A stretch of 64,000 bases of DNA from an uncultured Candidatus Saccharibacteria bacterium (GCA_964618765.1 CAZUDZ010000001.1:5826-69825), one strand, 5' to 3'; counted from the stretch's first letter, positions 5,951 through 62,545 are shown. Numbers and translations: made by a program. The notes: generated by a model from the sequence alone, not told the origin.

Positions 5951-7081
5951 ATGTCAGAAGTTAAAAAAGAAGTCTTAAAGGAAACTGAGACTAAAAATAA
6001 AAGTTTTCAGATACCAGAACTAATAGATTTTCTAAGAGCGGGAGCTCATTTCGGGCATAAAAAAAGTGCTTGGAATCCTCGTATGAAGAAATATATCTAC
6101 GAAGAAAGAAATGGTATCCATATAATTGATCTTGTTAAAACAAGAGAAATTCTCGAGAAGGTATTAAAAAAGTTAGAAGATTTTTCAAACAAAGGAAATG
6201 TTCTCATTGTTGGAACTAAAGGACAAGCTGCTTCCGTTATACAAAAGGTTGCAGAAGAGAACGGTATGTTTTACATTAACCAAAGATGGATGGGTGGTCT
6301 CTTTACTAATTTTGATGTAATTAAAAAGAGTGTTCATGATTTAGTTAAGATGGAGGAACAGCTAGCAAGTGGTTTGCAAGGATATGTTAAGAAGGAGAGG
6401 CTCCTTTTACAGAAAGATATTGAAAGGTTAGACAGAATATACAAAGGAATTAAATTTATGGAAAAGCTTCCTGAGGTAGTTTTGGTGATTGATAGCCAAG
6501 TTGAAAAGAATGCAATTAAAGAGGCAAATAAAGTAGGTGTCCCAATAATAGCTTTAATAGATACAAATTGTAATCCAGACTTAATAACCTACCCAATTCC
6601 CGCAAATGATGACTCAATTAAGAGTATTTCTCTTTTCGTAAAACTCTTTGGAGAAGTTGTTGGTAAGAGTAAAAAATCTCTCTCTGTCGTATCTTTAAGG
6701 AGAGACCATGAAGCAAAATTAGAGAAGATTAAAAGAGAGTATGAGGAAGAGAAAGAGAGGATGGAGAGAATAGAGGAGGAGGAAAGACGAAGAATGAAAG
6801 CGTTAAGGGAGGGTAAGGTAGAAACGAAAGAGGTAGGTTCTGTGGTGAGGGTTGTGAAGAAAGAGAAAGATATAGAGGCTGACGTAAAGGCAGCGGAAGA
6901 AGTCAAAGAGAGTTCCAAGGGTATTGAGGAGTTAGGTCTTTCAACCAGAACAGAGAATGCACTAAAAGGGGCAAAAATTAAAACAGTACGAGATCTTAAA
7001 GGATACTCCAAGGAAGAGATGAGGGAAATTAGTGGTATAGGTCCCAAGTCAATAGAGGAGATTCAGAAGGCGATAAAGTAG
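5951..7081 (+). CDS. rpsB: 30S ribosomal protein S2 with a long C-terminal extension: a charged coiled-coil linker plus an HhH domain resembling the RNA polymerase alpha C-terminal domain
   Basis: The S2 core occupies about aa 1-240 (FGHKKSAWNPRM, VLIVGTKGQA, PIIALIDTNCNPD). The 376 aa length compares with about 250 for typical S2. The tail reads GIEELGLSTRTENALKGAKIKTVRDL...EMREISGIGPKSIEEIQKAIK. Confidence 0.9.
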   Translation: MSEVKKEVLKETETKNKSFQIPELIDFLRAGAHFGHKKSAWNPRMKKYIYEERNGIHIIDLVKTREILEKVLKKLEDFSNKGNVLIVGTKGQAASVIQKVAEENGMFYINQRWMGGLFTNFDVIKKSVHDLVKMEEQLASGLQGYVKKERLLLQKDIERLDRIYKGIKFMEKLPEVVLVIDSQVEKNAIKEANKVGVPIIALIDTNCNPDLITYPIPANDDSIKSISLFVKLFGEVVGKSKKSLSVVSLRRDHEAKLEKIKREYEEEKERMERIEEEERRRMKALREGKVETKEVGSVVRVVKKEKDIEADVKAAEEVKESSKGIEELGLSTRTENALKGAKIKTVRDLKGYSKEEMREISGIGPKSIEEIQKAIK

Positions 7082-8484: not shown

Positions 8485-9621
8485 ATGGTTTCCATTTTAA
8501 TAAACATAATTCTTTTCATCCTTGTAATAGGGTTTTTAACCTTTGTACATGAGTTAGGTCACTTCCTTGCTGCCAAGTCGATTGGGGCAAAGGTCTATGA
8601 ATTTTCATTAGGTTTTGGTCCTAAACTTCTTTCAAAGAAATATAAAGAGACTCTATACTGTATTAGAATCATTCCTTTGGGTGGATTTGTTAAGATATTG
8701 GGAGATGGTGATCCAAGTGAGTATGAAGGGAGTGTTAAGGATTTAGAGAATAGTAAATATAATTTAAACAATAAAAGTAAGATAGCTCAGATATTTGTTA
8801 TGTTGGCAGGTATCTTAATGAATATCTTGTTTGCAGTTGTCTTCTACTACGCAATCTTAGGACTTAATGGCTGGAAGAGTAATCCCATATATGTTGATTT
8901 AGAGAAAATAAATATAGTTGGTGCGAAGGTTGAGAAGGTAGTAGGTTATCAAGTTGTAGAGAAAGGGAATGCTTCTCAGGCAGGGTTGCCTACATACGGC
9001 ATAATTAAAGAGTTAGGGGGAGTAGAAGTCAATGACAAGGAGCAGCTAGTTGAGATGATCAAGGGTAGTGAGGAGGTTTCTCTTTTTGTTTGTGATGATT
9101 TGGAAGGTGAATGCAATGACTATACTGTAAAAGTAAATGGGGAGGGTCATATAGGGATATATATATCTCATGGTTTTGTTCTTAATTATGATGAAATGAA
9201 GGTTTTTGCTGGTCCTGTGTATTTGATAAATAATCTTAAAATTATAGGTAGAGTATTAGGTTCTTTAATAGGTTCAGCAAGAGAGACGGGTGATTACTCT
9301 GATCTTTCAAATACAGTGTCTGGCCCTATTGGCATATTTCTCTTAATAGATAGTTTGAAGGGCAGGGGTATAGTAGCGTTTCTTTCTTTAATAGCGGATC
9401 TTTCCATATCTCTAGCAATAATGAATCTTTTACCTATTCCTGCATTAGATGGGGGTAGGGTTATGATTGTAGTTTTGGAGGGGGTATTTAGAAAAAAGTT
9501 TAACGAGAAATTTAAAACGGTTGTTATTAACATCAGCATGGTATTGCTCATCCTGTTAGTGGTGTTGGTAATGGTTAAGGATGTTGTTAATATAGATAGT
9601 ATGAGGAGTATGTTTGAGTAG
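8485..9621 (+). CDS. rseP: Site-2 protease RseP-like M50 zinc metalloprotease with a PDZ domain
   Basis: HELGHFLAAK zinc motif in the first transmembrane (TM) helix, a central PDZ-like region, and a C-terminal LDGG motif (NLLPIPALDGGRV). Confidence 0.8.
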   Translation: MVSILINIILFILVIGFLTFVHELGHFLAAKSIGAKVYEFSLGFGPKLLSKKYKETLYCIRIIPLGGFVKILGDGDPSEYEGSVKDLENSKYNLNNKSKIAQIFVMLAGILMNILFAVVFYYAILGLNGWKSNPIYVDLEKINIVGAKVEKVVGYQVVEKGNASQAGLPTYGIIKELGGVEVNDKEQLVEMIKGSEEVSLFVCDDLEGECNDYTVKVNGEGHIGIYISHGFVLNYDEMKVFAGPVYLINNLKIIGRVLGSLIGSARETGDYSDLSNTVSGPIGIFLLIDSLKGRGIVAFLSLIADLSISLAIMNLLPIPALDGGRVMIVVLEGVFRKKFNEKFKTVVINISMVLLILLVVLVMVKDVVNIDSMRSMFE

Positions 9622-9682: not shown

Positions 9683-11449
9683 ATGGAAATAAATCTGTCT
9701 AGTAAAAGAAGTAAATTAATAATCCTTATTATATTTTTTGTTATCTTTGCAGGTACAGGGGGATATCTGTTATGGAGAGTTAATCAACCTGAGAGTGTAG
9801 CTCCAGAGGACAGTGAGGCAGGAGGAGGTGCAGGTGCTTGTTGTATAGAGGGGATAGGGTGTGTAGCAGGATATCGATGTGATATGAAAGCCTCGTGTAC
9901 AGCCACTGAGAAAGCCTACGTTGGAGGCTATGGCCCCCCATGCGGAACCTCAAACGGGAAGACAGTTAATTGTAGAAGCTATTTCTACTGTCAAAATCCT
10001 GGTACTAATACCTGCGAACCTGAAGACTCAGCTAATTTGGGTACATGTCAGCCTCTAAGCCCTGGAACTCCTCCTTCGGAGGGTGATTGTAAGGACGTTA
10101 AGTGTGAATGGCCTAAGGTACTAATGAGTGGGAGATTGGATGCTAGTCAAGATGTGTGTAGATGTGAGTTATGTACTGGTAAAGTTGCAAATAATCCATA
10201 TTCTTGTGGTGGTAATCCTCCTACTTGTACTCCAGGCTCATGTCCCTCAGGAACAGTCTCTTGTGGAGACTCTACGAATCATGAAAGTGGTAGCGATTGT
10301 AAAAAGAAAAGCTCAATATCCTGTGTTACCTACCATCCAGATTGTAATAATTCGACATATGTATATAGATACTGTAAGCCCATGTCATCTACACCTCCAC
10401 CTACAAATGTCTGTGATGGTGGTAATTGGACAGGAAAACCCTCTGGAACATATCCATACTGTTCTAACATAGCATACAAATTTGTTGCCAAAGATTCTGA
10501 TGGTGTTAAAAAATCCTCCATAGTAGTTAAATTAAATGACACGGTTAGGACTAATTTAACTAAAAGTACAATAAAAGAGGCTGACAAGGAAGTTGAGGTA
10601 AAGGAAACACTCAGTACCTCTTCTGATTGTCTTAAACCAGGGGAGTATACAATTAAAGCTTCTTGGGCAGACACAAAAGACAAAACAGGTCCTGAATGTT
10701 CTCTTACTGCATCATTTACTGTCTTGGAAGAAGAGAAAAATCCAGATTGGGATATTAGTAAAAAAGTTACTGAGGTTTGTATAGATGAGAATACGGAAAA
10801 CCCTAAATCGAAGTTGCAGTATGTGGTAACAATTACAAATAGTGGGGAAGGAGCGGGTAAAATTACATCCATAGTAGACACATTAGACAGTAAAGTTCTT
10901 GAAGGATATATTGATAGCATAAGTGCTAATGGGAAGTTTCAAGGTGGGACAATAGTATGGCCTGTAGTGGCAGGTGATCAGGAATTTAATCCTGGACAGT
11001 CGAAAACATACACATACTCATACGTTGTACCTAGTACTGCTTTCGGGGTTTACAATAATACAGTAAAAGCAACCCCTGCTGTTGGGAATACTTTGATAGC
11101 TAATGCCACTATCTCTGCTGATTGTGAGGTTTTAGAACCAGAGGAAGAACCTGTACCCGATGAGGAGATACCAGTAGCTGAGGAGAGAGATCTTCCAGAA
11201 AGTGGTATCTTTGATGATTCTCAAGCCTCCATATTACTAGGGGTTGGTTTACTTCTTCTAGGTTTTACATGGAGGATTCTTGGTAGGGGTATGTATGTAT
11301 CTATTGAATTGTTAGGTAGTGTACCCAAGAAGGTATCTATACATATGAAGGATATAAAGGAGGATATAAGGGGAAGACAAAGGATTAGACTTTTACAAAA
11401 AAGAGAACAAAATAGAAAGAAATTTGAAAAGAGAGTAGTAAAGGAGTAG
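9683..11449 (+). CDS. Surface protein: N-terminal signal-anchor, Cys-rich region with about 45 Cys, a DUF11-like repeat domain, and a C-terminal LPESG + TM + extended basic tail
   Basis: N-terminal hydrophobic helix KLIILIIFFVIFAGTGGYLLW. DUF11-like segment ISKKVTEVC...VVTITNSGEGAGKITSIVDTLD. LPESG at 11192-11206 followed by ILLGVGLLLLGF, WRILGRG and a 60-aa K/R-rich tail. It is a paralog of the next gene. Confidence 0.8.
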   Translation: MEINLSSKRSKLIILIIFFVIFAGTGGYLLWRVNQPESVAPEDSEAGGGAGACCIEGIGCVAGYRCDMKASCTATEKAYVGGYGPPCGTSNGKTVNCRSYFYCQNPGTNTCEPEDSANLGTCQPLSPGTPPSEGDCKDVKCEWPKVLMSGRLDASQDVCRCELCTGKVANNPYSCGGNPPTCTPGSCPSGTVSCGDSTNHESGSDCKKKSSISCVTYHPDCNNSTYVYRYCKPMSSTPPPTNVCDGGNWTGKPSGTYPYCSNIAYKFVAKDSDGVKKSSIVVKLNDTVRTNLTKSTIKEADKEVEVKETLSTSSDCLKPGEYTIKASWADTKDKTGPECSLTASFTVLEEEKNPDWDISKKVTEVCIDENTENPKSKLQYVVTITNSGEGAGKITSIVDTLDSKVLEGYIDSISANGKFQGGTIVWPVVAGDQEFNPGQSKTYTYSYVVPSTAFGVYNNTVKATPAVGNTLIANATISADCEVLEPEEEPVPDEEIPVAEERDLPESGIFDDSQASILLGVGLLLLGFTWRILGRGMYVSIELLGSVPKKVSIHMKDIKEDIRGRQRIRLLQKREQNRKKFEKRVVKE

Positions 11450-11512
11450 AAGTTTATTGATATTTTAATAGTTTGTTGGTAAATTGTTTAATATATCTGA
11501 ATTTATGTAAGT

Positions 11513-12943
11513 ATGAATATAAATCTGTCCACTAAGAAGAGTAAATTAATAATACTTGTTTCATTATTTGTAGTTTTTGTTATATCTGGAGGCTATCTTT
11601 TATGGAGAATAAATCAACCTGAGACGGTAGCTCCGGATTATACGGAAGCATCTTTTGACAAGGATTGTACGATATACGGCAGTTGTTATATCGTGATGGG
11701 AGATTGTGTAGGTACTTGTTCAGATAAAGAGACTTGGAGATATTGTGATTCTTGTGGGGGAGGAACGGATCCAAGTAGTTGCAATAATAGAGTTGCCAGC
11801 GATGTCGGGAAACCGGTTGGGACCAGATGTATTGGAAAGGGTTCGTACACATATGAATGTGGGGCTTGGTGCTACTTGTCTTCCAATGGACCAAGCTGTT
11901 GTAGCTCTCCAACACCCACATACACCCTCAAATATACTGCTAGTACTGGTGGTGAAATATCTGGAAGTGCTTCTCAATCTGTTAAGAAAGGTAATTCAGG
12001 CACTCCGGTAACAGCTGTGGCTAAGGCAGGATATACTTTTTCTAAATGGAGTGATGGTAAAACAGATGCCAGTAGAACAGATACAAATATACAAGGCAAC
12101 ATTACTGTTAATGCAGAATTTACTGCTAAACAGTACACAGTCACATACAAAGCAGATAGTAATGGGAGTCTAACAGGGAAAAAGAACCAAACAGTTAACC
12201 ATGGAGCTTCTACTACCTCTGTAACTGCTGTTCCTAACCCAACATACTTTTTTGCTGGCTGGAGTGATGGTGAATCTGTTAACCCTAGGCAAGACACTGA
12301 TGTTAAAAAGGACATTACAGTTACTGCAACCTTCTCTCTGTCTTGTGGTAATGGTACCTGTGAAGTAGATGAGAATGCACAGACTTGTCCATCTGATTGT
12401 AAAGCAAAATGTGGTGATGGTTACTGTACTCATGATGAAACCGTTTTAACTTGTCCAAAGGATTGTAAAGCAAAATGTGGTGATGGTTACTGTACCCACG
12501 ACGAAACCTCCGTAACCTGTCCAGAGGACTGCTCCGCCGAGTGTGGAGATGGTTACTGTGATCCTAAAACAGAGACAGCTGCCAACTGCCCAGCAGACTG
12601 TGCTTCTAACTGTGGTGATGGTGCTTGTACACACGACGAAACATCTGCAACCTGTCCAGAGGACTGTGGTCCTGGAGTAGCAGTAGTACCTGAAACAGGC
12701 ATATTTGATGATGTACAAGATTCTGTCCTAGTAGGATTCGTATTACTCTTCCTCGGCTTTACATGGAGGATTCTAGGTAGGGGAATCTATATCTCCGTAT
12801 CCTTCCTAGGAACATTGCCTAGAAAGCTAACCATACAGTTTAAAGATGTAAAAGAAGATGTAAGAGCAAGACAAAGGATTAGACTTTTACAAAAAAGAGA
12901 ACAAAACAGAAAGAAATTTGAAAAGAAGGTAGTAAAAGATTAA
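11513..12943 (+). CDS. Surface protein paralog: the same N- and C-terminal modules, with a Cys-rich region, two Listeria/Bacteroides-type (InlB B-repeat-like) domains and five 22-aa Cys-rich repeats
   Basis: The N-terminus aligns with the previous gene (MNINLSTKKSKLIILVS...GGYLLWRINQPETVAPD). It has GYTFSKWSDG and TYFFAGWSDG repeat motifs, a CGDGYCTHDETxxTCPxDC unit five times, then VPETG at 12687-12701 followed by TM and a near-identical basic tail. Confidence 0.8.
   Translation: MNINLSTKKSKLIILVSLFVVFVISGGYLLWRINQPETVAPDYTEASFDKDCTIYGSCYIVMGDCVGTCSDKETWRYCDSCGGGTDPSSCNNRVASDVGKPVGTRCIGKGSYTYECGAWCYLSSNGPSCCSSPTPTYTLKYTASTGGEISGSASQSVKKGNSGTPVTAVAKAGYTFSKWSDGKTDASRTDTNIQGNITVNAEFTAKQYTVTYKADSNGSLTGKKNQTVNHGASTTSVTAVPNPTYFFAGWSDGESVNPRQDTDVKKDITVTATFSLSCGNGTCEVDENAQTCPSDCKAKCGDGYCTHDETVLTCPKDCKAKCGDGYCTHDETSVTCPEDCSAECGDGYCDPKTETAANCPADCASNCGDGACTHDETSATCPEDCGPGVAVVPETGIFDDVQDSVLVGFVLLFLGFTWRILGRGIYISVSFLGTLPRKLTIQFKDVKEDVRARQRIRLLQKREQNRKKFEKKVVKD
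12344..12675 (+). repeat. Tandem 66-nt coding repeat, 5 copies, encoding a 22-aa Cys-rich unit (CGDGxC-THDET-x-TCP-x-DC)
   Basis: tgtggtgatggttactgtac(t/c)ca(t/c)ga(t/c)gaaac... recurs head-to-tail. Copies 2 and 3 are nearly identical at the nucleotide level. Confidence 0.8.
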
Positions 12944-12990: not shown

Positions 12991-13191
12991 ATGGCTGTAA
13001 TAGTACATTCTAACGAAAACATAGACAGTGCACTCAAAAGACTTCACAGGGAAGTCCTAAGGGAGAAGATACTGGAAACATACAGATCTAAACAGTACAG
13101 AGTTACCAAATCTGAAGAAGAAATTCAGAAAAGAAGAGAGTGGGCTAAGATGAAAAGAAGAAGAAGAAGTGCAGCTCGAAGAGCTAAGTAA
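12991..13191 (+). CDS. rpsU: 30S ribosomal protein S21
   Basis: 66 aa, matching the S21 profile (ALKRLHREV...YRSKQYRV) with a basic C-terminus. Confidence 0.85.
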   Translation: MAVIVHSNENIDSALKRLHREVLREKILETYRSKQYRVTKSEEEIQKRREWAKMKRRRRSAARRAK

Positions 13192-22529: not shown

Positions 22530-23423
22530 ATGAGTCAGAATACAGTTTCAATAAAATTAACAGCAAATGAGGCAGAACTCTTAAAAGGAATTCTTTTGGA
22601 AAAGGGTTGGAATGAACAGGAGATAAATAATGAGTATATTGCTCTTAGGATGAAAAATGATGAAGGCTCTGTTTGTACACTGTATACTAGTATGAAAGTA
22701 GTTTTTCAAGGGAAAGAAGATTTCAAGGATATATTGGGAATATTGAAGGATACAGAAGAGGATATCAATATAGTGGCACACATAGGCGTAGATGAGGTTG
22801 GTAAGGGTGATTACTTTGGTCCTTTAGTTGTAGTGGCTTGTTTTGTAAATAAGGATTTCTTAAATCAGATTCAAGGATTAGGTATAGGAGACTCTAAGAA
22901 GATCTCAGATAGAAGAATAATTGATATTTATGAAGAAATAAAAGAGTACCCATACTATTATGTCTCCATTGTACATCCTAAGGAATACAACAGACAAATC
23001 AAAGAGCTTAAGAATGTATCTATCCTTCTAGCTAAGCAGCACTCCAAGGTTATAGAGATGGGACTGAAGGACTTGAAAGAGGAAAACATAGAATGTACAG
23101 AGGTTGTCATAGATCAATTCTCTTCAAAGAAGAGTAGGGTAGTTGATGAGTTAGGGCCATTGGCACAAAAGGTAAATTTTGTACAATACCATAAAGGGGA
23201 GTCAGATATAGCAGTAGGATGTGCATCTGTTCTTGCTAGAGCAATATTTCTAAGAGAGTTAGATGAAATGGGTCGTAAGTATTACTTTACATTTCCCAAG
23301 GGGGCTTCAGCTGTCATAGATACTGCTCGAGAATTTGTTAGGAAAAATGGAGCGAAAGAGTTAGAGAATGTAGCAAAAACAGGCTTTAAGACAACAAAGA
23401 AGGTTATACAGGATTCTTTTTAG
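22530..23423 (+). CDS. rnhC: Ribonuclease HIII-like: an ~80-aa N-terminal domain plus an RNase HII-fold catalytic domain
   Basis: Catalytic GVDEVGKGDYFGPLVVVA (DEDD family). The N-terminal extension and ~300 aa length fit RNase HIII better than HII. Confidence 0.7.
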   Translation: MSQNTVSIKLTANEAELLKGILLEKGWNEQEINNEYIALRMKNDEGSVCTLYTSMKVVFQGKEDFKDILGILKDTEEDINIVAHIGVDEVGKGDYFGPLVVVACFVNKDFLNQIQGLGIGDSKKISDRRIIDIYEEIKEYPYYYVSIVHPKEYNRQIKELKNVSILLAKQHSKVIEMGLKDLKEENIECTEVVIDQFSSKKSRVVDELGPLAQKVNFVQYHKGESDIAVGCASVLARAIFLRELDEMGRKYYFTFPKGASAVIDTAREFVRKNGAKELENVAKTGFKTTKKVIQDSF

Positions 23424-24321
23424 GCTTCTTTTTTGAAAAGAGTACTTTCAAAAATATCACAGTAAGAAGTAATCCTAGTCCTACAAGAAGAAGAACTGTA
23501 TAGTTTGGTTGAATAATTACTTCTTTGACTATAATATTCTCATCTATTCCATTATAGAATCTCCCAACGACGATTTTCTCAGAGAAAAAATCAGATAAAT
23601 GATAATCATCTATCTCAAACTCTTCTTCTAATAACCCCTGGGGGTATAATTTTTGTTGCTTCTCATTAATCTTTAAGTAAATTGGGGGATAGTCACCTCT
23701 CTTGCTATACAGCTGTATCTCTCCCATAGGATTTAATACATAGTTAGTGTCATTTTTGTAAGAATACTTTATTGTAGTAGGGGACATAAAAGGTACTCCC
23801 TTTTCTATAACCTGTATATCAATAGTAGCAAACTTACTACTGATCCCATAAATATCGCTTTCTGAGTCCACTATATGAAGTACAACCAGCTGTGAGAGGC
23901 TCTCTACTGTCCCTACAGGGCTTGTCTCAGTGACAAATGTATCTTCCATCTGTCTTTCTAAAACTATCAGATTGAAGTAAGTTCCTGGCTTCATATTCGC
24001 GATAGGGACAACCTCGTACTCAATCTCTAGAGTTTCTTTAGGTTTAACTTTAAATATCTCCTTGTCTGCTCGTGTGAAGATAATGCCGTTACTGTCGGTC
24101 ATTTCCAATGTTTCAGGGTCATATGAGTGCACTATTGGTGTAATGAGAACATCTTTCTTAGAATCATTTTCGAAGTAAACGGATCCCTTTGTTCTTTCTT
24201 CATTTGAGATTAGAATCTCATTTTTGTATGGGTATATTGTACCCGCAAAGACTTCTTTGTGCTGTAAAAAATTTAGCATCAACAAAAACAAAACTGTTAG
24301 GAATACTGTTTTGAACTTCAT
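23404..24321 (-). CDS. Surface protein with N-terminal signal peptide and C-terminal TM anchor plus Lys-rich tail (gene A of a 4-gene surface operon)
   Basis: Signal MKFKTVFLTVLFLLMLNFL...VFA and C-terminus LLLVGLGLLLTVIFLKVLFSKKKPKKNPV. It has the same topology as DUF916/CscA-like anchors. Confidence 0.7.
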   Translation of the reverse strand: MKFKTVFLTVLFLLMLNFLQHKEVFAGTIYPYKNEILISNEERTKGSVYFENDSKKDVLITPIVHSYDPETLEMTDSNGIIFTRADKEIFKVKPKETLEIEYEVVPIANMKPGTYFNLIVLERQMEDTFVTETSPVGTVESLSQLVVLHIVDSESDIYGISSKFATIDIQVIEKGVPFMSPTTIKYSYKNDTNYVLNPMGEIQLYSKRGDYPPIYLKINEKQQKLYPQGLLEEEFEIDDYHLSDFFSEKIVVGRFYNGIDENIIVKEVIIQPNYTVLLLVGLGLLLTVIFLKVLFSKKKPKKNPV

Positions 24322-24328
24322 ATGTTCC

Positions 24329-25357
24329 TTATTTAGGTAGATTTTCTGATTTCTTCTTCTCCTTCTTTTTCCTGAGGGTTACTATTAATATTGTTGTTAG
24401 GATTATTATTAATGCTAGTAGGATGTATCTCCAAGGTAATATCCAGAAGGAGGCAGTTGCACTCAGTGGTGCGAAACCTGGTTGGAATGTACGATACATT
24501 AATATCAAGTTAGCATCTATTGGCCCCATTATGAGTTTCTTGTTTGCACTTAAGAAAGAACCGTAGTCCCATGGAGTTTCGTATTCGGCTGTATTGCCTC
24601 TTAATATACTCTGTCCATTTTCATTAAATATTATCTTACCTACTTCTTGCTTAAAGATATTTGTTAAAATGATCTCTCCGACAGGGCTAATGTGTGTATC
24701 TCCTAGGTTGTTAATTCTAGTTTCAAACTTAACAGTAGGAGTTTCGTAGAAATTTCTGTCTGTTGTAAATTTTAGCAACTCTGCATTCTCGGTAAATTCA
24801 TCTCCGATTTTTATTAGGATAGGGGTTCCTGAAGAAAGAGAAGTAAAAGCAGCTGTCCCTCCAAGGGCCGAATCTGTTTCTGAGATAAAGGCTACTATTA
24901 CAGTATATTCTCCCTTTGTTATATTCTTGGGGACATTAATTTCATAGAAGATTTTCTCATTCTTGTTTGGTATCAAAGTAATCTTCTCCCTACTTACTTT
25001 GGTCCAAGAAGCAGCAGAGTAGAGTGCTTTCTCTTCTTCCTCTTCTGTGAACATAATGGCAGTACCAGGCTGGTTTTCAATCTGTCTAAAACCTCTTACA
25101 TATACATTGTAAGTAGTTGTTTCTTCTGAGAGATTCCATACAACGATTTCCCCTTCATACTTTTCTCCTATTTCTAACTGTAATTTTTCAGAAACAGGTG
25201 CAGTGCCGATGTTTAGAGTTGTTTGTGCGTTAGCAGCTTTGCTGAAGAAAAAGAGAAGTACAATTGAGAAAATTGTGGCTAAAGAAACTATTCGTTTGTA
25301 GTACCTTGGGGCAGAGTATAGATTTTGATTTTTCATAATTAGTAGTAACCGCCACAA
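24329..25357 (-). CDS. Surface protein with N-terminal signal peptide and C-terminal TM anchor plus KKKEKKK tail (gene B)
   Basis: Signal and helix at the N-terminus; C-terminus ILLALIIILTTILIVTLRKKKEKKKSENLPK. Its start overlaps the upstream gene by 19 nt. Confidence 0.7.
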   Translation of the reverse strand: MWRLLLIMKNQNLYSAPRYYKRIVSLATIFSIVLLFFFSKAANAQTTLNIGTAPVSEKLQLEIGEKYEGEIVVWNLSEETTTYNVYVRGFRQIENQPGTAIMFTEEEEEKALYSAASWTKVSREKITLIPNKNEKIFYEINVPKNITKGEYTVIVAFISETDSALGGTAAFTSLSSGTPILIKIGDEFTENAELLKFTTDRNFYETPTVKFETRINNLGDTHISPVGEIILTNIFKQEVGKIIFNENGQSILRGNTAEYETPWDYGSFLSANKKLIMGPIDANLILMYRTFQPGFAPLSATASFWILPWRYILLALIIILTTILIVTLRKKKEKKKSENLPK

Positions 25358-26460
25358 ACATATGTGACATACTCGTTATATGTTCCTGCTAAAGCTGCAG
25401 AATCTGCTCTTGCTCCATAAGTAATGCCTGCACTGTGGGCAGGTGCGGTAGGTGTAGTTTTATATAGTAGTAATTTAGCACCAGTTGCATTTGCTACTAT
25501 TCCTCCAAAAGTCGTAGGTGCTGTTACTTGAAAGTTAGCTGCTGTAGTTGCGCCTGAGGGTGTTGTTGAAACTACCAAGCCGAACCCCTTTGTATCTGAT
25601 CCAGAAAGGTCAACAGTTGTAGCCCCAGAGTTAAGCGTATATCCTGCTCCTGTGGAGTTATAAAGACCTGCGGTGGTACCGTTACCTTTCCCATATACAG
25701 CCCAATAGTAACCACTATTCGTAGAAGACGTACTAATTTGTGTCGCCTCTTCTTTTGTTACTAAGGCACCTCCGGGAAACAGAGTTCCTATGGATACTGT
25801 AGTAGGAGCTACCGTACAATTGATAGTAGGAGCTGCAGTTACGGTGGCAGACACTTGAACAGTATCTTCAGCGATAAGATAAACTCCAAAGGCTTTAGAA
25901 TCTAAATTGTCATCATCAGAGACCTGTATTGTTATAGTTTTGGATCCAGAGGTTGCAGCAGTTCCTAATCTTCCTGTGCCATTGGATACTTTAACCCCGT
26001 ATGTAGTCCCACTAGTAAGAGAGCCAACATTGGTTATGGTTATCCTATCTGTAGTAGCTCCACTACCGATGGCACAAGTAGCGGCAAGGGTACTAGCTGC
26101 TTTTACTGGAAGAGCTGTAGTTATATCATAACCTGTAACATCAGGAGCTCCTGTTGCAACTCCTGTTACTGTTAGTGCGCCTGCATTTCTACACCAGTTG
26201 GTATTATCACTTTTTGGAAATAGTATCTCAATTTCAAGGTTCTTAGCTTCTGCGAAGGCCTGGCTAGGAGTAACTGCGAGAACCATTTCAACCTCATTGT
26301 TTGTTTGTCCATTTAAACCTGCCTTAATTCTACTTAGAAAAAGGTATGTGCTACCAAGAGTCCCTGCTTGGGTCTTAAAGTTTGGAAACAGCATAACAAA
26401 GAAAAATGTAGAGACCAAAAAAATCATTACAACGGAAATCAGTTTGTTTTTTTTCATCAC
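25339..26460 (-). CDS. Secreted Thr/Gly/Ala/Ser-rich beta-rich protein with no C-terminal anchor (gene C)
   Basis: Signal MMKKNKLISVVMIFLVSTFFFVML, then a low-complexity T/G/A/S-rich sequence with alternating patterns typical of surface beta-sandwich or fibre proteins. It ends ...YVCGGYY. Confidence 0.7.
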   Translation of the reverse strand: MMKKNKLISVVMIFLVSTFFFVMLFPNFKTQAGTLGSTYLFLSRIKAGLNGQTNNEVEMVLAVTPSQAFAEAKNLEIEILFPKSDNTNWCRNAGALTVTGVATGAPDVTGYDITTALPVKAASTLAATCAIGSGATTDRITITNVGSLTSGTTYGVKVSNGTGRLGTAATSGSKTITIQVSDDDNLDSKAFGVYLIAEDTVQVSATVTAAPTINCTVAPTTVSIGTLFPGGALVTKEEATQISTSSTNSGYYWAVYGKGNGTTAGLYNSTGAGYTLNSGATTVDLSGSDTKGFGLVVSTTPSGATTAANFQVTAPTTFGGIVANATGAKLLLYKTTPTAPAHSAGITYGARADSAALAGTYNEYVTYVCGGYY

Positions 26461-26566
26461 TTGAATAGGGCAGACCTTTAATGTTAATTAATGGTAGTAA
26501 AAAGATAACTGATTAATTCTAATATGTCAAGAGGTTTTACAACCTCCTCCGTAGTATTAAAGTTAT

Positions 26567-27766
26567 CTAGTATCTGGGTACTAATATAAAATAAATTAAC
26601 TCAGAGTAGTCTGTAGCAGAAGTTCTACTTGTGGAGGCTCTAGCTTTTAGGTATATACCCATTCTGCCAGTATTAATAGGTCCATCTCCATCATAGATTT
26701 TTTTAGCATCAGTAGAAACCTCTCCAACTACATTCGCACTTCCTGCATAGTTTGTCATACTAGTTATCTCTCCTAAATATGTAGAAACTTCGTAGTCAAT
26801 ATAGTAATTTTGTAAACCGAAACCTTCAGCTGCAGAAGAATCTAAGTCGATATTGGTTGATGGAATTAATTCTGTTGTGGTTGTACTGTACAACCCTCCA
26901 TTCTTTCCATACTGTATGACAGCCATCCCGCCAGAAGAGCTACTATCTACATCTAACCATATTAAACTAGAAGAAGTAACAACAGCTGCACCTCCGATCA
27001 ATTTCTCTCCTCCTGAGAAAGATACTGTGTATGGGGGAGAGGATTCTGTACTGTATCCTGTGCTAGTAGCAATATCTATATCAAAAAATAACTTTGCTAA
27101 AGCTGTCTTAGCATTTACTGAAATACTTGGATCGGATTGCGTAAAATCACCGTGTAATGCTGATGTTCTAATGTAGTAGGTGGTGTCAGGTTCTAATCCT
27201 TTAATATTGAAAGTTTCATCCTCCCAATATGTTTCGGTTCTAAAGTCATTAATATTACAGTTACTAGCTACCTTAGGTTGAAAGGTAGATGCATCGACGC
27301 ATCTGAAATCAGAAACGAAATTATCTAGAGATACCTGTATACCGTATAGGGTGTCAGAAGGGTTACTGTGGGGCTCTATCTCGAACCTTGCCTTGTCGTA
27401 ACAACCATTTCCTCCACATATCGCTACCATTCCTCCACTTAATAGCTCTGTAGGACCGGAAGTGCAGTTAGTAGATCCGTTACTACTTGTTTCAAAGCAC
27501 TGTATGGAAGGTTGTGCAGCCACAAATGCGTTAGAGGGATCTTGATCTACTCTGTAGGAAGTAGAGTAATTTCTAGGGTTTGCAGTGAGTCTTCCTACTT
27601 CCGAGAGCATCTGGAAATTACTGGATTCTAAAGTTCCTCCACCGCCAGATGTAGATACTCCAACCATTTTGAAGTTGGTTGAGTCTAATTCATATGCAAA
27701 AAGATTAGTAGTAAAAAAAAGGATAGGGAGGAAAAGGAAAGGAATTAAGATATTAGCAGATTTCAT
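26567..27766 (-). CDS. Secreted protein with a duplicated S(T/S)NF(K/Q)M motif after the signal peptide (gene D, first in the operon)
   Basis: Signal MKSANILIPFLFLPILFFTTNLFA. The mature N-terminus is YELDSTNFKM...GGGGTLESSNFQM. It has several Cys pairs and no C-terminal anchor. Confidence 0.7.
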   Translation of the reverse strand: MKSANILIPFLFLPILFFTTNLFAYELDSTNFKMVGVSTSGGGGTLESSNFQMLSEVGRLTANPRNYSTSYRVDQDPSNAFVAAQPSIQCFETSSNGSTNCTSGPTELLSGGMVAICGGNGCYDKARFEIEPHSNPSDTLYGIQVSLDNFVSDFRCVDASTFQPKVASNCNINDFRTETYWEDETFNIKGLEPDTTYYIRTSALHGDFTQSDPSISVNAKTALAKLFFDIDIATSTGYSTESSPPYTVSFSGGEKLIGGAAVVTSSSLIWLDVDSSSSGGMAVIQYGKNGGLYSTTTTELIPSTNIDLDSSAAEGFGLQNYYIDYEVSTYLGEITSMTNYAGSANVVGEVSTDAKKIYDGDGPINTGRMGIYLKARASTSRTSATDYSELIYFILVPRY

Positions 27767-29720: not shown

Positions 29721-30896
29721 ATGCTTCTAATTCTCTTTTTTCTACTACTCCTCACATCGCCCATATATGGAGATGGTTTTGATATGATAGGCAACTGTAG
29801 TTTTAATAGATACAGGCAAACTACAGCTATTTCTCTGTTCTTTCTTCCGGAGAGTGTAAGTAACGGGAATTTTGGGATCTCTTACGATACGAACTTAGTA
29901 GAGGGTACTAAAACAGAAGATGTTTGGGAAAATATTTCTCTAGGGACTTTAACAGAGAATGATTATTGGAGAAGAATACCAGGAGTTTTAGATAATGTTA
30001 GTGGGCCTCCTGGGACTGAGATAGATATCCTGTATTTCTTTCTTAACCAGACAGGTCATGCAGTAGAGGTTAGTAAAATAGCTCTCCCTTTCAGCAGGAC
30101 AAATTTAGATCAAGGTAATTGGCTAAAGCTAGCCTCTATGTATGGAAATTCTCCAATATACAGGGAGATACCAATTCCTTGGGAGCAACTTGTTCTTGGG
30201 AGGAAATCTCTTACTAAAGAGTATTCAGGTCCTGGTCTACTATACGATGGGCAGGGAGGATCAGAAGTAGTAGATTCATTGACCATCTCGGATCCGATAC
30301 TAATTAAGGATATCCAAGTAGTAAGGCAGCAAGATGGAGTTAAGATAACACTTTGGTTAGAAAATATCACAACTGAACCCTTGGAGGATATTCTTTTAGA
30401 ACATTTTAAATATGTAAAGGAAGTAACAATTCCTGCTCTTGAAGAGATAGAGGTTAGCTATCTACTTAAGGATTTTTCTGGCTCTGAGGTATTAAGGATA
30501 ACGAATCCTAATAGTGCACAGGAGTGTATAATCTATGGTAATTCATTCTCTGATTGGACTAAGACAGAAGCAATAACAGTTCTAGCATACAGAGAGGATG
30601 GTGGATGGGTAAATGGTTCATATGTACAGCCTGAGGTTGAAAGTTTCTGTATTAGGCAAATACCATATACGACAAACATCATATTAAGAGGATACGAAGA
30701 TATGTGGGATGAAACAGCTGTAAGTCAAAAAGAAGAAAAAGAGACAGCAGAAGGGGAAGCTACAGAGGAGGAGAGTAGTGTTAAAGAAGATAAGGAAGAG
30801 ATATTAGGTATATCTAGAGAGGCCTTAGATGATCAGGGGGTGCGAATAAAGAGGGATAACTTTTTACTACCTAAAACAGGCGTGGTAATATATTAG
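29721..30896 (+). CDS. Secreted protein ending in LPKTG followed by only five residues
   Basis: Signal MLLILFFLLLLTSPIYG. The C-terminus is ...NFLLPKTGVVIY*, with LPKTG at 30867-30881. Confidence 0.65.
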   Translation: MLLILFFLLLLTSPIYGDGFDMIGNCSFNRYRQTTAISLFFLPESVSNGNFGISYDTNLVEGTKTEDVWENISLGTLTENDYWRRIPGVLDNVSGPPGTEIDILYFFLNQTGHAVEVSKIALPFSRTNLDQGNWLKLASMYGNSPIYREIPIPWEQLVLGRKSLTKEYSGPGLLYDGQGGSEVVDSLTISDPILIKDIQVVRQQDGVKITLWLENITTEPLEDILLEHFKYVKEVTIPALEEIEVSYLLKDFSGSEVLRITNPNSAQECIIYGNSFSDWTKTEAITVLAYREDGGWVNGSYVQPEVESFCIRQIPYTTNIILRGYEDMWDETAVSQKEEKETAEGEATEEESSVKEDKEEILGISREALDDQGVRIKRDNFLLPKTGVVIY

Positions 30897-33822: not shown

Positions 33823-34770
33823 ATGGATAAATATCCAGAGATAGAGAAAATATATAATGATATAAAAGATTTGAACATTCAGGGTGCTACCAATGTTGCA
33901 ATCGCAACATTCGAAGGAATGAATCTGTATGAAGAAATAAGTAAACAGGAGGAGAAAGAGCTGTTTTACAAAGAGTTCTTTGAGGTAGGGGACAAGCTTT
34001 CTCATGCTAGGGTAAATGAGCCTCTAGCTACAAATGGTGTTAAATATGTGAAATACTCTTTTGATAAAAAATATTCCGTTTTACCAGAGTTAGCAACCAT
34101 GAAACGAGAGTTAGTGAAGCTCTCTGAGGATTTTCTTGATATTATCGGACAATCTAAGAAGGATCTGATAGATAAATCATGGAGGTTCTTCTCTAACTAC
34201 AACAAGATATTTACTCACTGTCACTCTTCTACCGCTGTATCATTAATTAAATCAATTTCTAAAAACAAGCCTAAATTCGAAGCAGTTTGTACAGAGACAA
34301 GACCAAAACTACAAGGGAGAATCACAGCTAAGAGTTTACTTGAGGCCAAAATTAAAACTACCCTCATTGTAGATAATGCTGGAGAATCATTCATCATAAA
34401 TAGAGGTACTGTTCCAGTAGAGATAATTTTCATCGGTTGTGATCAGATTACTTTACAAGGTCATGCCATTAACAAGATAGGTAGCTGGGGATTAGGAATG
34501 GCTGCACATTTTGCAGACAAACCGTTCTATGTAGTTACACCTTTTCTTAAACTTGATGTAGACTCTTATCATGGCAGTGTAGAGATTGAAGTGAGAGAAA
34601 ACGATGAACTATGGAAGGATGCTCCAAAGGGATTGAATATGCATAATCCTGCATTTGAAGTTGTAGATAAGGCATTGATTACTGGTTATGTAACAGAGTT
34701 GGGGATTATAAGGGCAGATGATATTAAAAAAACAGCTAAAGAGCACTATCCTTGGCTGTTTACTACTTAA
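33823..34770 (+). CDS. eIF-2B alpha/beta/delta-like (e2b2) protein, ribose-1,5-bisphosphate isomerase-like
   Basis: GCDQITLQGHAINKIGSWGLGMAAHFADKPFYVVTP matches the e2b2/MtnA family core. Confidence 0.7.
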   Translation: MDKYPEIEKIYNDIKDLNIQGATNVAIATFEGMNLYEEISKQEEKELFYKEFFEVGDKLSHARVNEPLATNGVKYVKYSFDKKYSVLPELATMKRELVKLSEDFLDIIGQSKKDLIDKSWRFFSNYNKIFTHCHSSTAVSLIKSISKNKPKFEAVCTETRPKLQGRITAKSLLEAKIKTTLIVDNAGESFIINRGTVPVEIIFIGCDQITLQGHAINKIGSWGLGMAAHFADKPFYVVTPFLKLDVDSYHGSVEIEVRENDELWKDAPKGLNMHNPAFEVVDKALITGYVTELGIIRADDIKKTAKEHYPWLFTT

Positions 34771-34788
34771 GTTGTGTAATAAATTAAT

Positions 34789-36300
34789 ATGGCTTTCTAT
34801 TTAAGAAGTAAAAATTTAGATTTGGGAGAAGATAGTGATTTGAATATTGTTTTAAATCGTAAAGATGCAGAAAGATTAGGAGTAAGGGAGGGGGAGATTG
34901 CTCTTGTTGGCTTAGGAGAGGTAGAACTGCATGTTAATGTAATGGAAACAGACTCGAATGTTGCTGAGGGTGAAATCGGTCTTTTCGAAGAAATATGGAA
35001 GGAGTACAGAATAGAGAGTGGATCTTCTGTTTTTGTGGATATACCTAATCCTACGGAATCTTTAGGATTAATAAGTAAGAAGCTATTAGGACACAATCTT
35101 AAGGAAGAGGAATTGAAATTGATCATGAAGGACATAGGAAGTCGGAAGTTAAGGGAAACAGAGATAGCTTTTTTCATTTCAACATTCTTTAACCCTGGAT
35201 TTAATGATGATGAAATATATTGGATGACCAAGGGAATGGCAGGCTCTGGTGATATTCTAGACTTTAAGGGCATAAGGGGGAATGGTCATTTAGTAGCGGA
35301 CAAACACTCCATTGGGGGAGTAGCAGGAAAAGCAATAACACCAACCTTGGTCCCAATATTAGTCTCTGGAGGATTGATAGTTCCTAATACTTCTACCAGA
35401 GCAATAACCTCTCCTGCTGGGACATCAGATATTTTGGAAGTAGTAATGCCCGTAGCACTGTCTAAAGAGAAAGTAATGGAAGTGGTCAAGCAAACAGGAG
35501 GGTGTATGTTCTGGGGTGGTTCTTTAGATCTTTCTCCTGCAGATGATGTAATTATTAATGTTGAACGATCTTTAAGAATACAGGAATTCCAAAAGGTTCT
35601 AGTTAGTATCGTTGCTAAGAAAATCTCAATGGGTGTTACCCATATCCTCATAGATTTGCCATATGGAAAAGGTTCTAAGATAGAGAGAGTAGATGATGTC
35701 CAGATGTTAGACAGGGAGTTTAAGAAACTATTCAAGAAATTCAACATCCATTGTGAAACGATCAAGAGAGTTATTAAAGGTCCTGATGGGAGAAGCATTG
35801 GACCAAACATGGAGATTAAAGAGGCTCTGAAGATTTTGGAAGGAGATCAGGGTAAGTCTCAGGAGTTAGAGGACTCCGTCATAGAGATGGCGACTCGGTT
35901 GTTTGAAGGAACAAAAACAGTTGAGAGAGGGCAGGGTAAGAAATTTGCACAAGAAATTTTAAGCTCAGGGAAAGCTTTGGATAAATTCTGGGAGATAGCT
36001 TTTGCTCAGGGGGCAATTAAAAGGGTTAATTCATCTGAGATAAAGTCTGGGAATTTACAGTATGATGTTATTTCAGATCGAAATGGAGTGGTAAAATCGT
36101 TGGATAATACTGGATTGGTGAGTATTGCGAAGGCATTAGGTAACCCTAAGATAAAGGAGGCAGGAATATATATGCATAAAGTGCAGGGTGAACAGGTTAG
36201 CAAGGGTGATGTTTTAATAACACTGTATGCCACAACAGAGGCTAGACTAGGAAGTGCGAAGGAGATTTTAGATATAAATAAACTATATACTTTTAAATAG
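34789..36300 (+). CDS. AMP phosphorylase (thymidine phosphorylase family, archaeal-type with an N-terminal extension)
   Basis: Pyrimidine-nucleoside phosphorylase core (HSIGGVAGKAITPTLVPILVSGGLIVPNTSTRAITSPAGTSDILE) plus an ~90-aa N-terminal domain typical of archaeal AMPpase. Confidence 0.7.
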   Translation: MAFYLRSKNLDLGEDSDLNIVLNRKDAERLGVREGEIALVGLGEVELHVNVMETDSNVAEGEIGLFEEIWKEYRIESGSSVFVDIPNPTESLGLISKKLLGHNLKEEELKLIMKDIGSRKLRETEIAFFISTFFNPGFNDDEIYWMTKGMAGSGDILDFKGIRGNGHLVADKHSIGGVAGKAITPTLVPILVSGGLIVPNTSTRAITSPAGTSDILEVVMPVALSKEKVMEVVKQTGGCMFWGGSLDLSPADDVIINVERSLRIQEFQKVLVSIVAKKISMGVTHILIDLPYGKGSKIERVDDVQMLDREFKKLFKKFNIHCETIKRVIKGPDGRSIGPNMEIKEALKILEGDQGKSQELEDSVIEMATRLFEGTKTVERGQGKKFAQEILSSGKALDKFWEIAFAQGAIKRVNSSEIKSGNLQYDVISDRNGVVKSLDNTGLVSIAKALGNPKIKEAGIYMHKVQGEQVSKGDVLITLYATTEARLGSAKEILDINKLYTFK

Positions 36301-52222: not shown

Positions 52223-53203
52223 ATGATAGAAATAACGGAGAAACAGCTTAACAAGAGAGTAGATCTTTTCCTACTTGAATATCTAGAAAGTAAAGAGGGG
52301 GAACTGTTTTCCCGGAATTTCCTTGTTAACAATTGGGGTGGAATAATGAAAGTAAATGGGAATAGTGTAAAACAGTCATACAAATTAAAAATGGGAGACA
52401 AGGTAGAGGTAGATATGGAAAAGGTTGAGAAATTAAAAGAGCTCTTAAATAGGACTTCTACAATAGAAGGAGAGAATTCAGCATTAGATATCCTTTTTGA
52501 AAATGAAGATTTTTTGGTAATAGAAAAGCCTAAAGGAATGGTTGTACATCCTGGAATAGGGAATAGAGAAGGAACGCTAGCAAATTATGTAAAAGGATAC
52601 CTTGAGAAGAACGAGGAATTTGACAGTAAGATGAGCAGAGCAGGTTTAGTTCATAGGTTGGACAAGGGGGTTGGAGGTTTAATAGTTTTTGCAAAAAATC
52701 TTTCAACACAAAGATATTTACAAGAGCAATTTGAGAGACACCAAGTAAGGAAGATATATTTGGCTGAAATAGAATTTAAACAGCTTAAAGAAGGATTAGA
52801 TAAGTATTTTCCACAGAAACAGCTAGATATTGATGAGGAGATAAAGAGCCTAGAGGAGGATGACTTTAAACCCGGCAAGAGTTGGTTTAAAGCGGAAGGA
52901 TATATAGCAAGGAGTAAAAGCAATAGGATGAAGATGGAATTTAAAAGATTTGTCGGACGAAACGGAAAGGAAGCGATATCATATATAAAGCCAATAAGTG
53001 AAGAACAAGTGTTAATTGTCATAAAAACAGGAAGAATGCACCAAATCAGAGCTACTTTAGAACATTTTGGGGTAGGAATTAAAGGGGATACTCTTTACGG
53101 TCTTTCCAAAACATCCCTGTTACCAGAGAAGATAGGGTTGAGATCAATATTCTTAGGCTTTAGGGAGGCAAATGGGGAAGAATTTACCATTATTAAGTAT
53201 TAA
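52223..53203 (+). CDS. rluD: RluA-family pseudouridine synthase (RluD-like, with an N-terminal S4-like domain)
   Basis: GMVVHPGIGNREGTLAN and the catalytic Asp motif LVHRLDKGVGGLIVFAKN. Confidence 0.85.
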   Translation: MIEITEKQLNKRVDLFLLEYLESKEGELFSRNFLVNNWGGIMKVNGNSVKQSYKLKMGDKVEVDMEKVEKLKELLNRTSTIEGENSALDILFENEDFLVIEKPKGMVVHPGIGNREGTLANYVKGYLEKNEEFDSKMSRAGLVHRLDKGVGGLIVFAKNLSTQRYLQEQFERHQVRKIYLAEIEFKQLKEGLDKYFPQKQLDIDEEIKSLEEDDFKPGKSWFKAEGYIARSKSNRMKMEFKRFVGRNGKEAISYIKPISEEQVLIVIKTGRMHQIRATLEHFGVGIKGDTLYGLSKTSLLPEKIGLRSIFLGFREANGEEFTIIKY

Positions 53204-53212
53204 ATTAGTAGT

Positions 53213-54421: not shown

Positions 54422-54430
54422 CTATATAAT

Positions 54431-56905: not shown

Positions 56906-56946
56906 AAGATCTGGTTTGGAACCTTTTGTTTGTGTTAGAATATACT

Positions 56947-57729: not shown

Positions 57730-57734
57730 AAAGA

Positions 57735-58199
57735 ATGCGTATTTTAGGTATAGATCCAGGTTTAGCTACAACAGGATGGTCTGTGGTAGATTTTGACAAT
57801 GATGGAAACCCAAAACCCATTGACTATGGTGCAATCGTTACTAAAAAGGGCCTAAGTGTCTCTGTTAGGTTAGCAGAGATATATGAGGATATGAATGAAT
57901 TAATAGAGAAATTTAAACCTGATTTAGCAGGAATAGAGACATTGATATTTTGTAATAATGCAAAAACAGTAATGTCTGTGGGAGAGGCTAGGGGAGTTGT
58001 GAGATTGGCCCTAGAGCAGAACAGCATCGATATTAAAGAGTTTACACCTCTACAGGTAAAAAATGCTGTAACAGGGTATGGTAAAGCTTCTAAAGAACAG
58101 GTACAAAAAAGTGTCAAGATAATCTGTAATTTGAAGGAAATTCCCAAACCAGATGATGCTGCGGATGCAATTGCTGTGGCTATTGCATGTTATTTTTAA
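57735..58199 (+). CDS. ruvC: Holliday junction resolvase RuvC
   Basis: MRILGIDPGLATTGW...DAADAIAVAI. Confidence 0.9.
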   Translation: MRILGIDPGLATTGWSVVDFDNDGNPKPIDYGAIVTKKGLSVSVRLAEIYEDMNELIEKFKPDLAGIETLIFCNNAKTVMSVGEARGVVRLALEQNSIDIKEFTPLQVKNAVTGYGKASKEQVQKSVKIICNLKEIPKPDDAADAIAVAIACYF

Positions 58200-58238
58200 C
58201 GAGATCTATACCTTCCCAAAATCCTGTATAATATAACC

Positions 58239-60656: not shown

Positions 60657-60674
60657 ATTTAAAAAGAAAAAACA

Positions 60675-62517: not shown

Positions 62518-62545
62518 GTAGGAAAAGATTTGCCTCAATTTTTAC

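Follow-up and report, generated by a model that had tools for sequence, protein, structure and literature searches.

Tandem genes for probable sortase-anchored, adhesin-like surface proteins with an extended C-terminal sorting signal at a conserved Dojkabacteria locus

The stretch of DNA analysed here (the window) comprises 64,000 nt of a contig from an uncultured bacterium with a very small genome (GCA_964618765.1, CAZUDZ010000001.1:5826-69825). The feature under study, at positions 9,683-12,943 counted on the window, is formed by two adjacent genes, W1 and W2, whose parts are listed in Table 1. The proteins share both ends: by BLASTP the N-terminal 46 amino acids (aa) are 67% identical (E 3e-18) and the C-terminal 85 aa 69% identical (E 4e-41), and no significant similarity was found between the middles. 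A first-pass annotation, made from the sequence alone, had described this arrangement with exact coordinates, and all the strings it quoted were found (LPESG/VPETG-IFDD, FTWRILGRG and RQRIRLLQKREQNRKKFEK-x-VVK-x). No Pfam family, NCBIfam model or solved structure matches the shared C-terminal module (C-module; best structure-sequence E 0.35).

The middle of W1 contains a DUF11 domain (PF01345, aa 367-466), recognized earlier from the sequence and passing the Pfam threshold marginally (24.7 bits vs a gathering score of 24.6, E 3.2e-5). The middle of W2 contains the two Listeria/Bacteroides repeats and the five 22-aa Cys repeats of the first-pass description: Flg_new_2 (85.8 bits, 1.9e-24) and Flg_new (45.9 bits, 6.2e-12) were identified in two stretches each, above the Pfam gathering scores (PF09479 / PF18998), TIGR02543 reached 23.5 bits against an NCBIfam cutoff of 20.95, and a 66-nt tandem repeat at 12383-12559 (Tandem Repeats Finder, TRF) matches the period of the Cys repeats. 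The sole factual slip of that description was a knot of about 45 Cys in W1, whose 29 Cys include about 24 within aa 53-244; W2 has 32. A protein identical to W2 is present in a public collection (P0002).

Table 1. Positions of W1 and W2, of their parts, and of neighbouring and related features, on the window unless another contig is named (Ig, immunoglobulin; AF2, AlphaFold2; pLDDT, predicted local distance difference test; ORF, open reading frame; CPR, Candidate Phyla Radiation)
Feature	Position	Strand	Description	Basis
W1 gene	9683..11449	+	588 aa: leader, Cys-rich variable region, Ig-like domain, DUF11 domain, acidic/Pro linker, C-terminal module	
W1 N-terminal module	9683..9820	+	aa 1-46; basic n-region, 20-aa hydrophobic helix ending GGYLLWR, then VNQPESVAPEDSEA	
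W1 variable Cys-rich region	9821..10414	+	aa 47-244, about 24 Cys	Cys count; AF2 pLDDT <50
W1 conserved stalk	10415..11125	+	Ig-like 'CDGGNW...' domain (~aa 245-347) and DUF11 beta-sandwich (~aa 355-480)	orthologue alignment, AF2, Pfam
W1 spacer ahead of motif	11126..11191	+	acidic, Pro/Glu-rich (EVLEPEEEPVPDEEIPVAEERD)	translation
W1 pentapeptide	11192..11206	+	LPESG (LPXTG-like)	BLASTP alignment, family consensus
W1 IFDD box and transmembrane helix	11207..11272	+	aa 509-530; conserved G520, L526-G527, W530	invariant alignment columns, AF2 helix
W1 cytoplasmic tail	11273..11446	+	58 aa; 18 K+R, 7 D+E; in order RILGRG stop, YVSIE..KKVSIHM segment, charged helix, terminal RKKFEKRVVKE	composition; F581-E582 invariant
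W2 gene	11513..12943	+	476 aa: leader, Cys-rich region, two Listeria-Bacteroides repeats, five Cys repeats, C-terminal module	
W2 N-terminal module	11513..11650	+	aa 1-46	BLASTP to W1, leader alignment
W2 repeat domains	11921..12328	+	two InlB B-repeat / Listeria-Bacteroides repeat domains, aa 137-272	Pfam, NCBIfam
W2 Cys repeats	12344..12667	+	five ~22-aa four-Cys repeats (CGDGYCTHDETxxTCPxDCxAx)	translation, TRF
W2 pentapeptide	12686..12700	+	VPETG	BLASTP alignment, module table
W2 IFDD box and transmembrane helix	12701..12766	+	aa 397-418	BLASTP alignment, family alignment
W2 cytoplasmic tail	12767..12940	+	58 aa; 18 K+R, 6 D+E; ends RKKFEKKVVKD	composition
rseP, upstream neighbour (context only)	8485..9621	+	M50 site-2 protease	Pfam M50; TIGR00054 RseP E 6.6e-63
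rpsU, downstream neighbour (context only)	12991..13191	+	ribosomal protein S21	Pfam S21, synteny
Small ORF downstream of sortase	L015:3550-3768; L016:3725-3949; L017:3792-4046; L037:3238-3468		72-84 aa	conserved in four genomes
Outlier L033	L033:3500-4204		235-aa protein; long-tail C-module behind ordinary signal peptide; outside the usual slot, beside a RuBisCO-like gene (judged by eye)	
Outlier L036	L036:3482-4114		CPR-like contig; LPESGIFDN, helix, 4-residue tail, ordinary signal peptide	

The C-module was tabulated in 34 distinct versions, is 60-89 aa long across the family and carries a pentapeptide of the pattern [LVIAM]-P-x-T/S-G, with invariant P and G and with T at least 90% conserved (18-member alignment and the 34 modules). 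The most frequent form is VPETG (9 modules), followed by LPGTG (6), VPDTG (4), IPETG and LPETG (3 each), APDTG (2) and several single variants, the third position being free (E/G/D/A/S/Q/K/V). The motif is preceded by a Pro/Glu-rich spacer, which keeps its position and varies in length in orthologues, and is followed by a box (I/L)-F-D-(D/N/E) with F invariant in the 18-member alignment. In all members a hydrophobic helix begins 7-8 residues past the motif and basic residues come after it, the basic stop often being W-R-x-x-G-R-G; conserved helix residues are G, L-G and, in the core set, W. With P and G fixed, T nearly so and x free ahead of helix and basic residues, the motif fits an LPXTG sortase signal, as was first proposed.

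The tail comprises 36-58 aa in the 34 modules, never less than 36, and its net charge ranges from +4 to +17. Insertions and deletions change the middle in both length and sequence, and the end is nearly always RKKxFE(K/R)KVVKD, the F-E pair being invariant in the 18-member alignment. The long tail, singled out in the first-pass annotation as the part that fits no LPXTG signal, is therefore a conserved feature and not noise. AF2 modelling of the module alone (18 sequences), a check suggested there, predicted a single continuous helix from the motif G to the end (pTM, the predicted template modelling score, 0.30), for which pLDDT is about 88 in the membrane part (85-91 in the helix), falls to about 60 in the juxtamembrane stretch and reaches 80-91 over the final 30 residues. 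The full-length W1 model folds the juxtamembrane part, with low confidence, into a beta-hairpin (YVSIE / KVSIHM) and places a helix after it. The helical hydrophobic moment of the tail is only 0.2-0.4, by which a strongly amphipathic or in-plane membrane helix is unsupported. Descent of the tail, as a remnant, from the adjacent S21 gene was also rejected (hhalign probability 0.8%).

The leader is formed by a basic n-region, a 20-aa hydrophobic stretch ending GGYLLWR and then VNQPE(T/S)VAPExSEA. Its motif is GGYLLWRVNQPE, with G26, L29, L30, W31, Q35, P41 and A46 invariant in 15 family members. A leader profile search gave matches on family-like fragments only, and no NCBIfam match was found at E <= 1, including the YSIRK-G/S and KxYKxGKxW signal peptides. 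A candidate signal-peptidase I site is located after S-E-A46, with P at -6, the small residue S at -3 and A at -1, and the leader would be cleaved there. The YSIRK-G/S and KxYKxGKxW leaders direct the site of secretion. The present family is like them in that a conserved leader and a sortase-type C-terminal signal frame unrelated ectodomains; the two differ in that there is no sequence similarity and that the conservation in W1 and W2 spans the GGYLLWR end of the core and 15 residues beyond it (NQPETVAPExSEA), the likeness being one of analogy only.

In the full-length AF2 model of W1 only two beta-sandwich domains are confident (~aa 245-480, pLDDT 70-92). The Cys-rich tip, the leader-proximal segment and the tail are of low confidence, and the packing of the two helices is beyond the resolution of the model. 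The stalk formed by the two domains has many invariant columns in the orthologue alignment, and the N-terminal halves of the orthologues are swapped, comprising several types of Cys-rich knots, a DYDFND-containing module and a DUF4114-like module (assigned by eye). Foldseek searches gave generic Ig-like stalk matches (PrgB, intimin and SpaP), with 8beg, 3opu and 6tqd at E ~1e-6 to 1e-5. Sortase-anchored adhesins with Ig-like stalks, such as PrgB and SpaP/antigen I/II, share with W1 the tandem beta-sandwich stalk and the variable distal region. The likeness is one of generic fold only (TM 0.1-0.3, ~10-14% identity), and the tips of W1 and W2 are instead Cys-rich knots or Listeria-Bacteroides repeats. 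As far as the models go, this layout of variable tip and conserved stalk suggests an adhesin-like family, and it makes sense only with the leader removed and the C-terminus as the attachment point.

The distribution of the family was established by locus scans together with an exhaustive HMMER search, in which the C-module was run against 1.84 billion representative proteins, since word-indexed searches were too insensitive (one truncated match for the C-module, seven short fragments for the N-terminal module). The exhaustive search identified carriers in only 19 clusters, 13 of them below E 1e-10. Pattern scans identified 13 loci among genomes, taken as one per species and scanned from a 7-sequence alignment, and 19 loci in metagenomes. 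The carrier records belong to Candidatus Dojkabacteria (WS6, of the CPR; UBA4813, UBA2177 and others), some being automatic submissions of metagenome-assembled genomes (MAGs) as 'uncultured Ca. Saccharibacteria'. The earlier guess of an episymbiotic lineage accords with a CPR lineage, Dojkabacteria, by these records. The gene content of the window is consistent with the same assignment: it contains rpsB-tsf-frr-rseP, small housekeeping genes and a nucleoside pathway of AMP phosphorylase and ribose-1,5-bisphosphate (R15P) isomerase, the latter cited for its fit with the lineage (PMC5113843). No description of the C-module or of Dojkabacteria surface proteins was found in the searchable literature.

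Every full-length member at the usual locus has the leader and the C-module framing unrelated or mosaic middles. The slot is the same in nearly every locus with flanks, rpsB-tsf-frr-rseP-[1-3 tandem family genes]-rpsU-yqeY-ybeY-pth, the exceptions being four outliers (L033-L036); rseP is 5' of the family gene or genes in every related locus that reaches that far, and the order is kept even where RseP is ~50% identical to that of the window. In the closer relatives the flanking housekeeping proteins are 70-83% identical to those of the window and the W1 orthologues 43-58%, with their N-terminal halves swapped. Judged by these sequences, the ectodomains are mosaic and change faster than the flanking housekeeping genes. 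The variable ectodomains that were first proposed are supported, with the qualification that the family is no large dispersed set of paralogues but consists of 1-3 tandem genes at one conserved housekeeping locus, with rare extra copies elsewhere (L033).

The family locus is often found on short contigs or at contig ends (L001, L003, L006, L008, L009-L011, L014, L019, L022, L025 and L030), and one MAG (CAYRDH01) contains two different versions of it, L006 and L008, which suggests strain-level hypervariability that breaks assemblies at this point. The largest number of genes in the rseP-rpsU slot is three in tandem, as in L031:1211-5639, where the short tail is identical in the two downstream copies (…NNRSRFEKRISKR).

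No sortase was identified in the 64-kb window, which contains no TLxTC-like motif and, among its Pfam-scanned ORFs, no PF04203 match. A 32.7-kb contig (L015), reached by look-up of a protein near the window end, overlaps window positions 52546-64000 at 99.97% identity and encodes a 215-aa sortase (L015:2803-3450; PF04203, E 2e-10, 40.9 bits vs a cutoff of 26.6), ~6 kb past the window end, at about window coordinate 69.9-70.6 kb and ~57 kb from W1 and W2. NCBI records place the identical sortase protein on a contig of 136,959 bp, and W1/W2 likewise on one of that length. By these records and the L015 overlap the sortase is on the same replicon piece as W1 and W2, and the co-occurring enzyme that the first-pass annotation had recommended looking for is thus present. 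Its catalytic residues H135, C198 and R206/R209 do not vary among 10 Dojkabacteria homologues, and its 210 close relatives belong, where named, to Dojkabacteria or WS6. Sortases are common in CPR bacteria (PMC6744442).

In four genomes the sortase is found in a cluster formed by gyrA, a VanY/LdcB-like peptidoglycan carboxypeptidase, the sortase and a small ORF. The small ORF encodes a signal peptide, a mature part of 12-25 aa rich in Tyr and Pro and ending HIP(E/R)(D/E)TG(I/L), a helix and a short tail, and could be a mini-substrate or a sortase accessory. The window itself contains a gene for a penicillin-binding protein transpeptidase (Pfam), which together with the carboxypeptidase beside the sortase provides a setting of peptidoglycan enzymes. 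Outside the usual slot, the layouts of L033 and L036 (Table 1) make the motif separable from the long tail and the long tail separable from the leader. By its sequence context, the PxTG-IFD motif is predicted to work as a normal-looking sorting signal in relatives. Another sortase, P0067, and the module-bearing L033 are both on contigs of 760,270 bp, taken for the same contig from their equal size alone, and a second genome appears to pair C-module and sortase. A further protein of the window (29721-30896, plus strand), of 391 aa, secreted-looking and with no Pfam or NCBIfam match, ends ...FLLPKTGVVIY, with LPKTG 4 residues from the stop and neither helix nor basic tail; the ending is kept in the near-identical P0023 and P0024 and may be a truncated or unconventional sorting signal.

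W1 and W2 are best read as sortase-anchored, adhesin-like surface proteins with an extended sorting signal, with a probability of roughly 0.6. They would be exported via Sec by the family-specific leader, which is probably cut by signal peptidase after S-E-A46, and the C-terminal helix and the basic tail would retain them in the membrane. The single sortase detected in the genome would then cut between T/S and G of [L/V]PE[S/T]G and transfer the ectodomain to peptidoglycan, as the anatomy of the motif and the presence of the enzyme suggest. Since the constraint seen in the module is not needed for retention alone, a second role is proposed for the ~80-aa membrane remnant or for the tail before cleavage. 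The tail may position the precursor at the sortase or at the secretion site; alternatively, it may act as a membrane-tethered 'C-peptide' docking a cytoplasmic or membrane partner. The end motif, nearly fixed in the alignments, favours a dedicated binding partner or a role for the remnant itself.

Several observations weigh against sortase anchoring. The modules have no match to the LPXTG anchor profiles PF00746 and TIGR01167 at E <= 1 (Pfam, NCBIfam), the tail is ~5-10x longer than in known sortase substrates, and the IFD after G and the helix show more conservation than sortases are known to need for recognition. With its candidate signal-peptidase site 15 residues beyond the 20-aa hydrophobic core, the leader may be an uncleaved signal anchor, by which the protein would be tethered at both ends. 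The sortase is below all NCBIfam class cutoffs (best ~15-22 bits vs 39-165), which gives it no class, and the small ORF beside it has two residues between P and T, unlike the spacing in the family. The support as a whole comes from sequence and models.

The layout of an LPXTG signal is a pentapeptide, a hydrophobic helix and basic residues, as outlined in PMC4155245. The family shares with it the fixed P, T and G with a free third position, the adjacent helix with basic residues, the Pro-rich spacer of wall-spanning type upstream and a sortase in the genome. The differences are a module of 60-89 aa vs ~35, a tail of 36-58 aa vs a few residues, sequence conservation in the helix, the IFD and the terminal RKKxFEKKVVKD, a first motif position that is often V, I or A, and the missing match to a curated anchor profile. 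A precedent for selection on the membrane remnant of a sortase-cleaved adhesin is the helix-plus-tail 'C-pep' of Streptococcus gordonii, left after sortase cleavage and interacting with a histidine kinase according to PMC11502775, which cites the S. gordonii work. Streptococcal C-peps are short and act via their membrane helix, whereas the present family conserves a long cytoplasmic basic helix, and no two-component kinase was found at its locus.

An extension of this comparison would make the module two signals in one: an outer sortase signal and, after cleavage, a membrane-tethered remnant of helix and tail whose RKKxFEKKVVKD end docks a partner, so that the cell interior of an ultra-small symbiont is informed of, or positions, the display of fast-evolving host-contact proteins, the place beside rseP in an operon of translation and envelope-housekeeping genes being functional. 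This is put forward tentatively, as a possibility of fairly low probability. Site-2 proteases act on helices with the N-terminus inside, so that the natural substrate of RseP would be the leader remnant only and not the C-peptide, and the conserved adjacency to rseP may be historical.

A different topology would make W1 and W2 uncleaved, doubly anchored membrane proteins with both ends in the cytoplasm and the ectodomain looping outside, the leader and the C-terminal helix perhaps packing together, the LPXTG-like string being a structural juxtamembrane element and the tail a docking or signalling domain. The invariant small residues of both helices (G26 in the leader; G/LG/W in the C-terminal helix) suggest specific packing, the leader core is of transmembrane length, the N- and C-modules co-occur in every full-length member at the locus, the tail has the length and conservation of a domain, and LPXTG-anchor models find no match. 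This topology is nevertheless judged unlikely: the pentapeptide, with its free x, fixed P/T/G and hydrophobic first residue, is what sortase recognition would be expected to leave, a sortase with intact catalytic residues is encoded on the same contig, the C-module occurs in L033 behind an ordinary cleavable signal peptide and hence does not require the leader, and a variable N-terminal tip tied to the membrane is poor geometry for an adhesin. It is less probable still that the tail has no partner and acts as a physical spacer or translation brake, by which the stop-transfer helix clears the ribosome tunnel and reaches the translocon before termination, a slow or scarce sortase gains time, and the many Lys and Arg strengthen retention and slow release. 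Some 36 residues are about the length of the ribosome exit tunnel, and the tail is never shorter than this although its middle varies by insertions and deletions; its net charge is always positive, and the genes are located amid translation genes, and terminator-like sites between them do not exceed the chance level. A spacer would need neither the invariant F-E and the near-fixed RKKxFEKKVVKD at the very end nor the conserved GRGxYxS box, and L036, in a related organism, has the same motif with a 4-residue tail.

Two further explanations were given very little weight. Processing of the module by an exosortase, archaeosortase, rhombosortase or myxosortase-type enzyme would agree with the tripartite layout of motif, helix and basic residues, common to all such signals (a concept set out in 10.1101/2023.06.07.544157 and PMC3237569), yet the signature is P-x-T-G and not PEP, PGF, GlyGly or an invariant Cys, no NCBIfam CTERM model matched, and neither the 64-kb window nor the ~10 kb beyond it showed an enzyme of this kind, whereas a sortase was found; this origin is very improbable. 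Hardly credible is that the shared ends are a mere residue of recent tandem duplication or gene conversion with no modular function. W1 and W2 are adjacent, and in their last 25 codons (11372-11446 vs 12866-12940) the DNA is 92% identical, vs 67% in the preceding 60, with only 2 of 22 identical-residue codons differing; paralogue pairs in other genomes have differing tail subtypes, suggesting local homogenisation in the lineage of the window. Against this, 19 of 37 identical-residue codons in the first 60 of the C-module and 9 of 31 in the leader differ synonymously, which rules out a simple recent duplication and points to purifying selection on the protein sequence. The modules are moreover kept in at least 34 distinct proteins of relatives, across genomes whose RseP is only ~50% identical. 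The first-pass annotation had named a module without other carriers, or one confined to two recently duplicated genes in a genome with no sortase, as grounds for dropping its idea; its proposed profile search for the C-terminal 85 aa instead gave the 19 clusters and 34 distinct modules described above, in many relatives, and the sortase is on the same contig. A-rich codon bias for K/R/E/Q accounts in part for the near-identity of the last 25 codons, which suggests either a local gene-conversion tract between the tandem paralogues or convergence by codon bias. An RNA element or terminator as the cause of the DNA-identical ends was ruled out: no Rfam family was identified in the region, and promoter and terminator matches were at chance level only.

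CPR bacteria live attached to other microbes and, to our knowledge, almost nothing is known of their contact proteins apart from type IV pili. With one conserved slot and 1-3 fast-diversifying, probably wall-anchored proteins, the locus is a concrete candidate for such proteins in Dojkabacteria. If W1 and W2 are anchored as proposed, a sortase-type signal can bear a long, sequence-constrained cytoplasmic extension, and if the tail is functional the wider idea follows that cells use the remnants of sorting signals. The N- and C-modules are also compact and specific markers for these proteins in Dojkabacteria bins, flagging a strain-variable locus where assemblies break.

Other genes of the window are described here in their own right. 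Upstream of the family locus, on the plus strand at 5951-7081, ribosomal protein S2 (Pfam S2, aa 28-236) is fused to an RNA_pol_A_CTD / helix-hairpin-helix part (aa 316-375), an unusual fusion. A four-gene cluster on the minus strand (23404-27766) encodes secreted proteins without a family, one with a weak match, below threshold, to the WxL-interacting peptidoglycan-binding family PF06030; two of them end in a helix and a Lys-rich tail, and the cluster recalls the WxL/Csc surface-protein loci of Firmicutes. At 33823-36300 (plus strand) a homologue of the e2b2-type R15P isomerase adjoins an AMP-phosphorylase-like gene, both belonging to the archaeal-type nucleoside/RuBisCO pathway described in Dojkabacteria and other CPR bacteria. 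Two plus-strand genes annotated from the overlapping contig L015, one for an 824-aa protein with DUF8128 and a weak match to the TrwB/coupling-protein ATPase (54431-56905) and the other for a tyrosine recombinase (Phage_integrase, 61120-62517), are possible remnants of a mobile element or of a DNA-uptake function. In the first 46 kb (1-46000) almost all genes are on the plus strand and the GC skew is strongly positive (0.1-0.4), dipping only at the minus-strand genes (24-28 kb and 46-48 kb).

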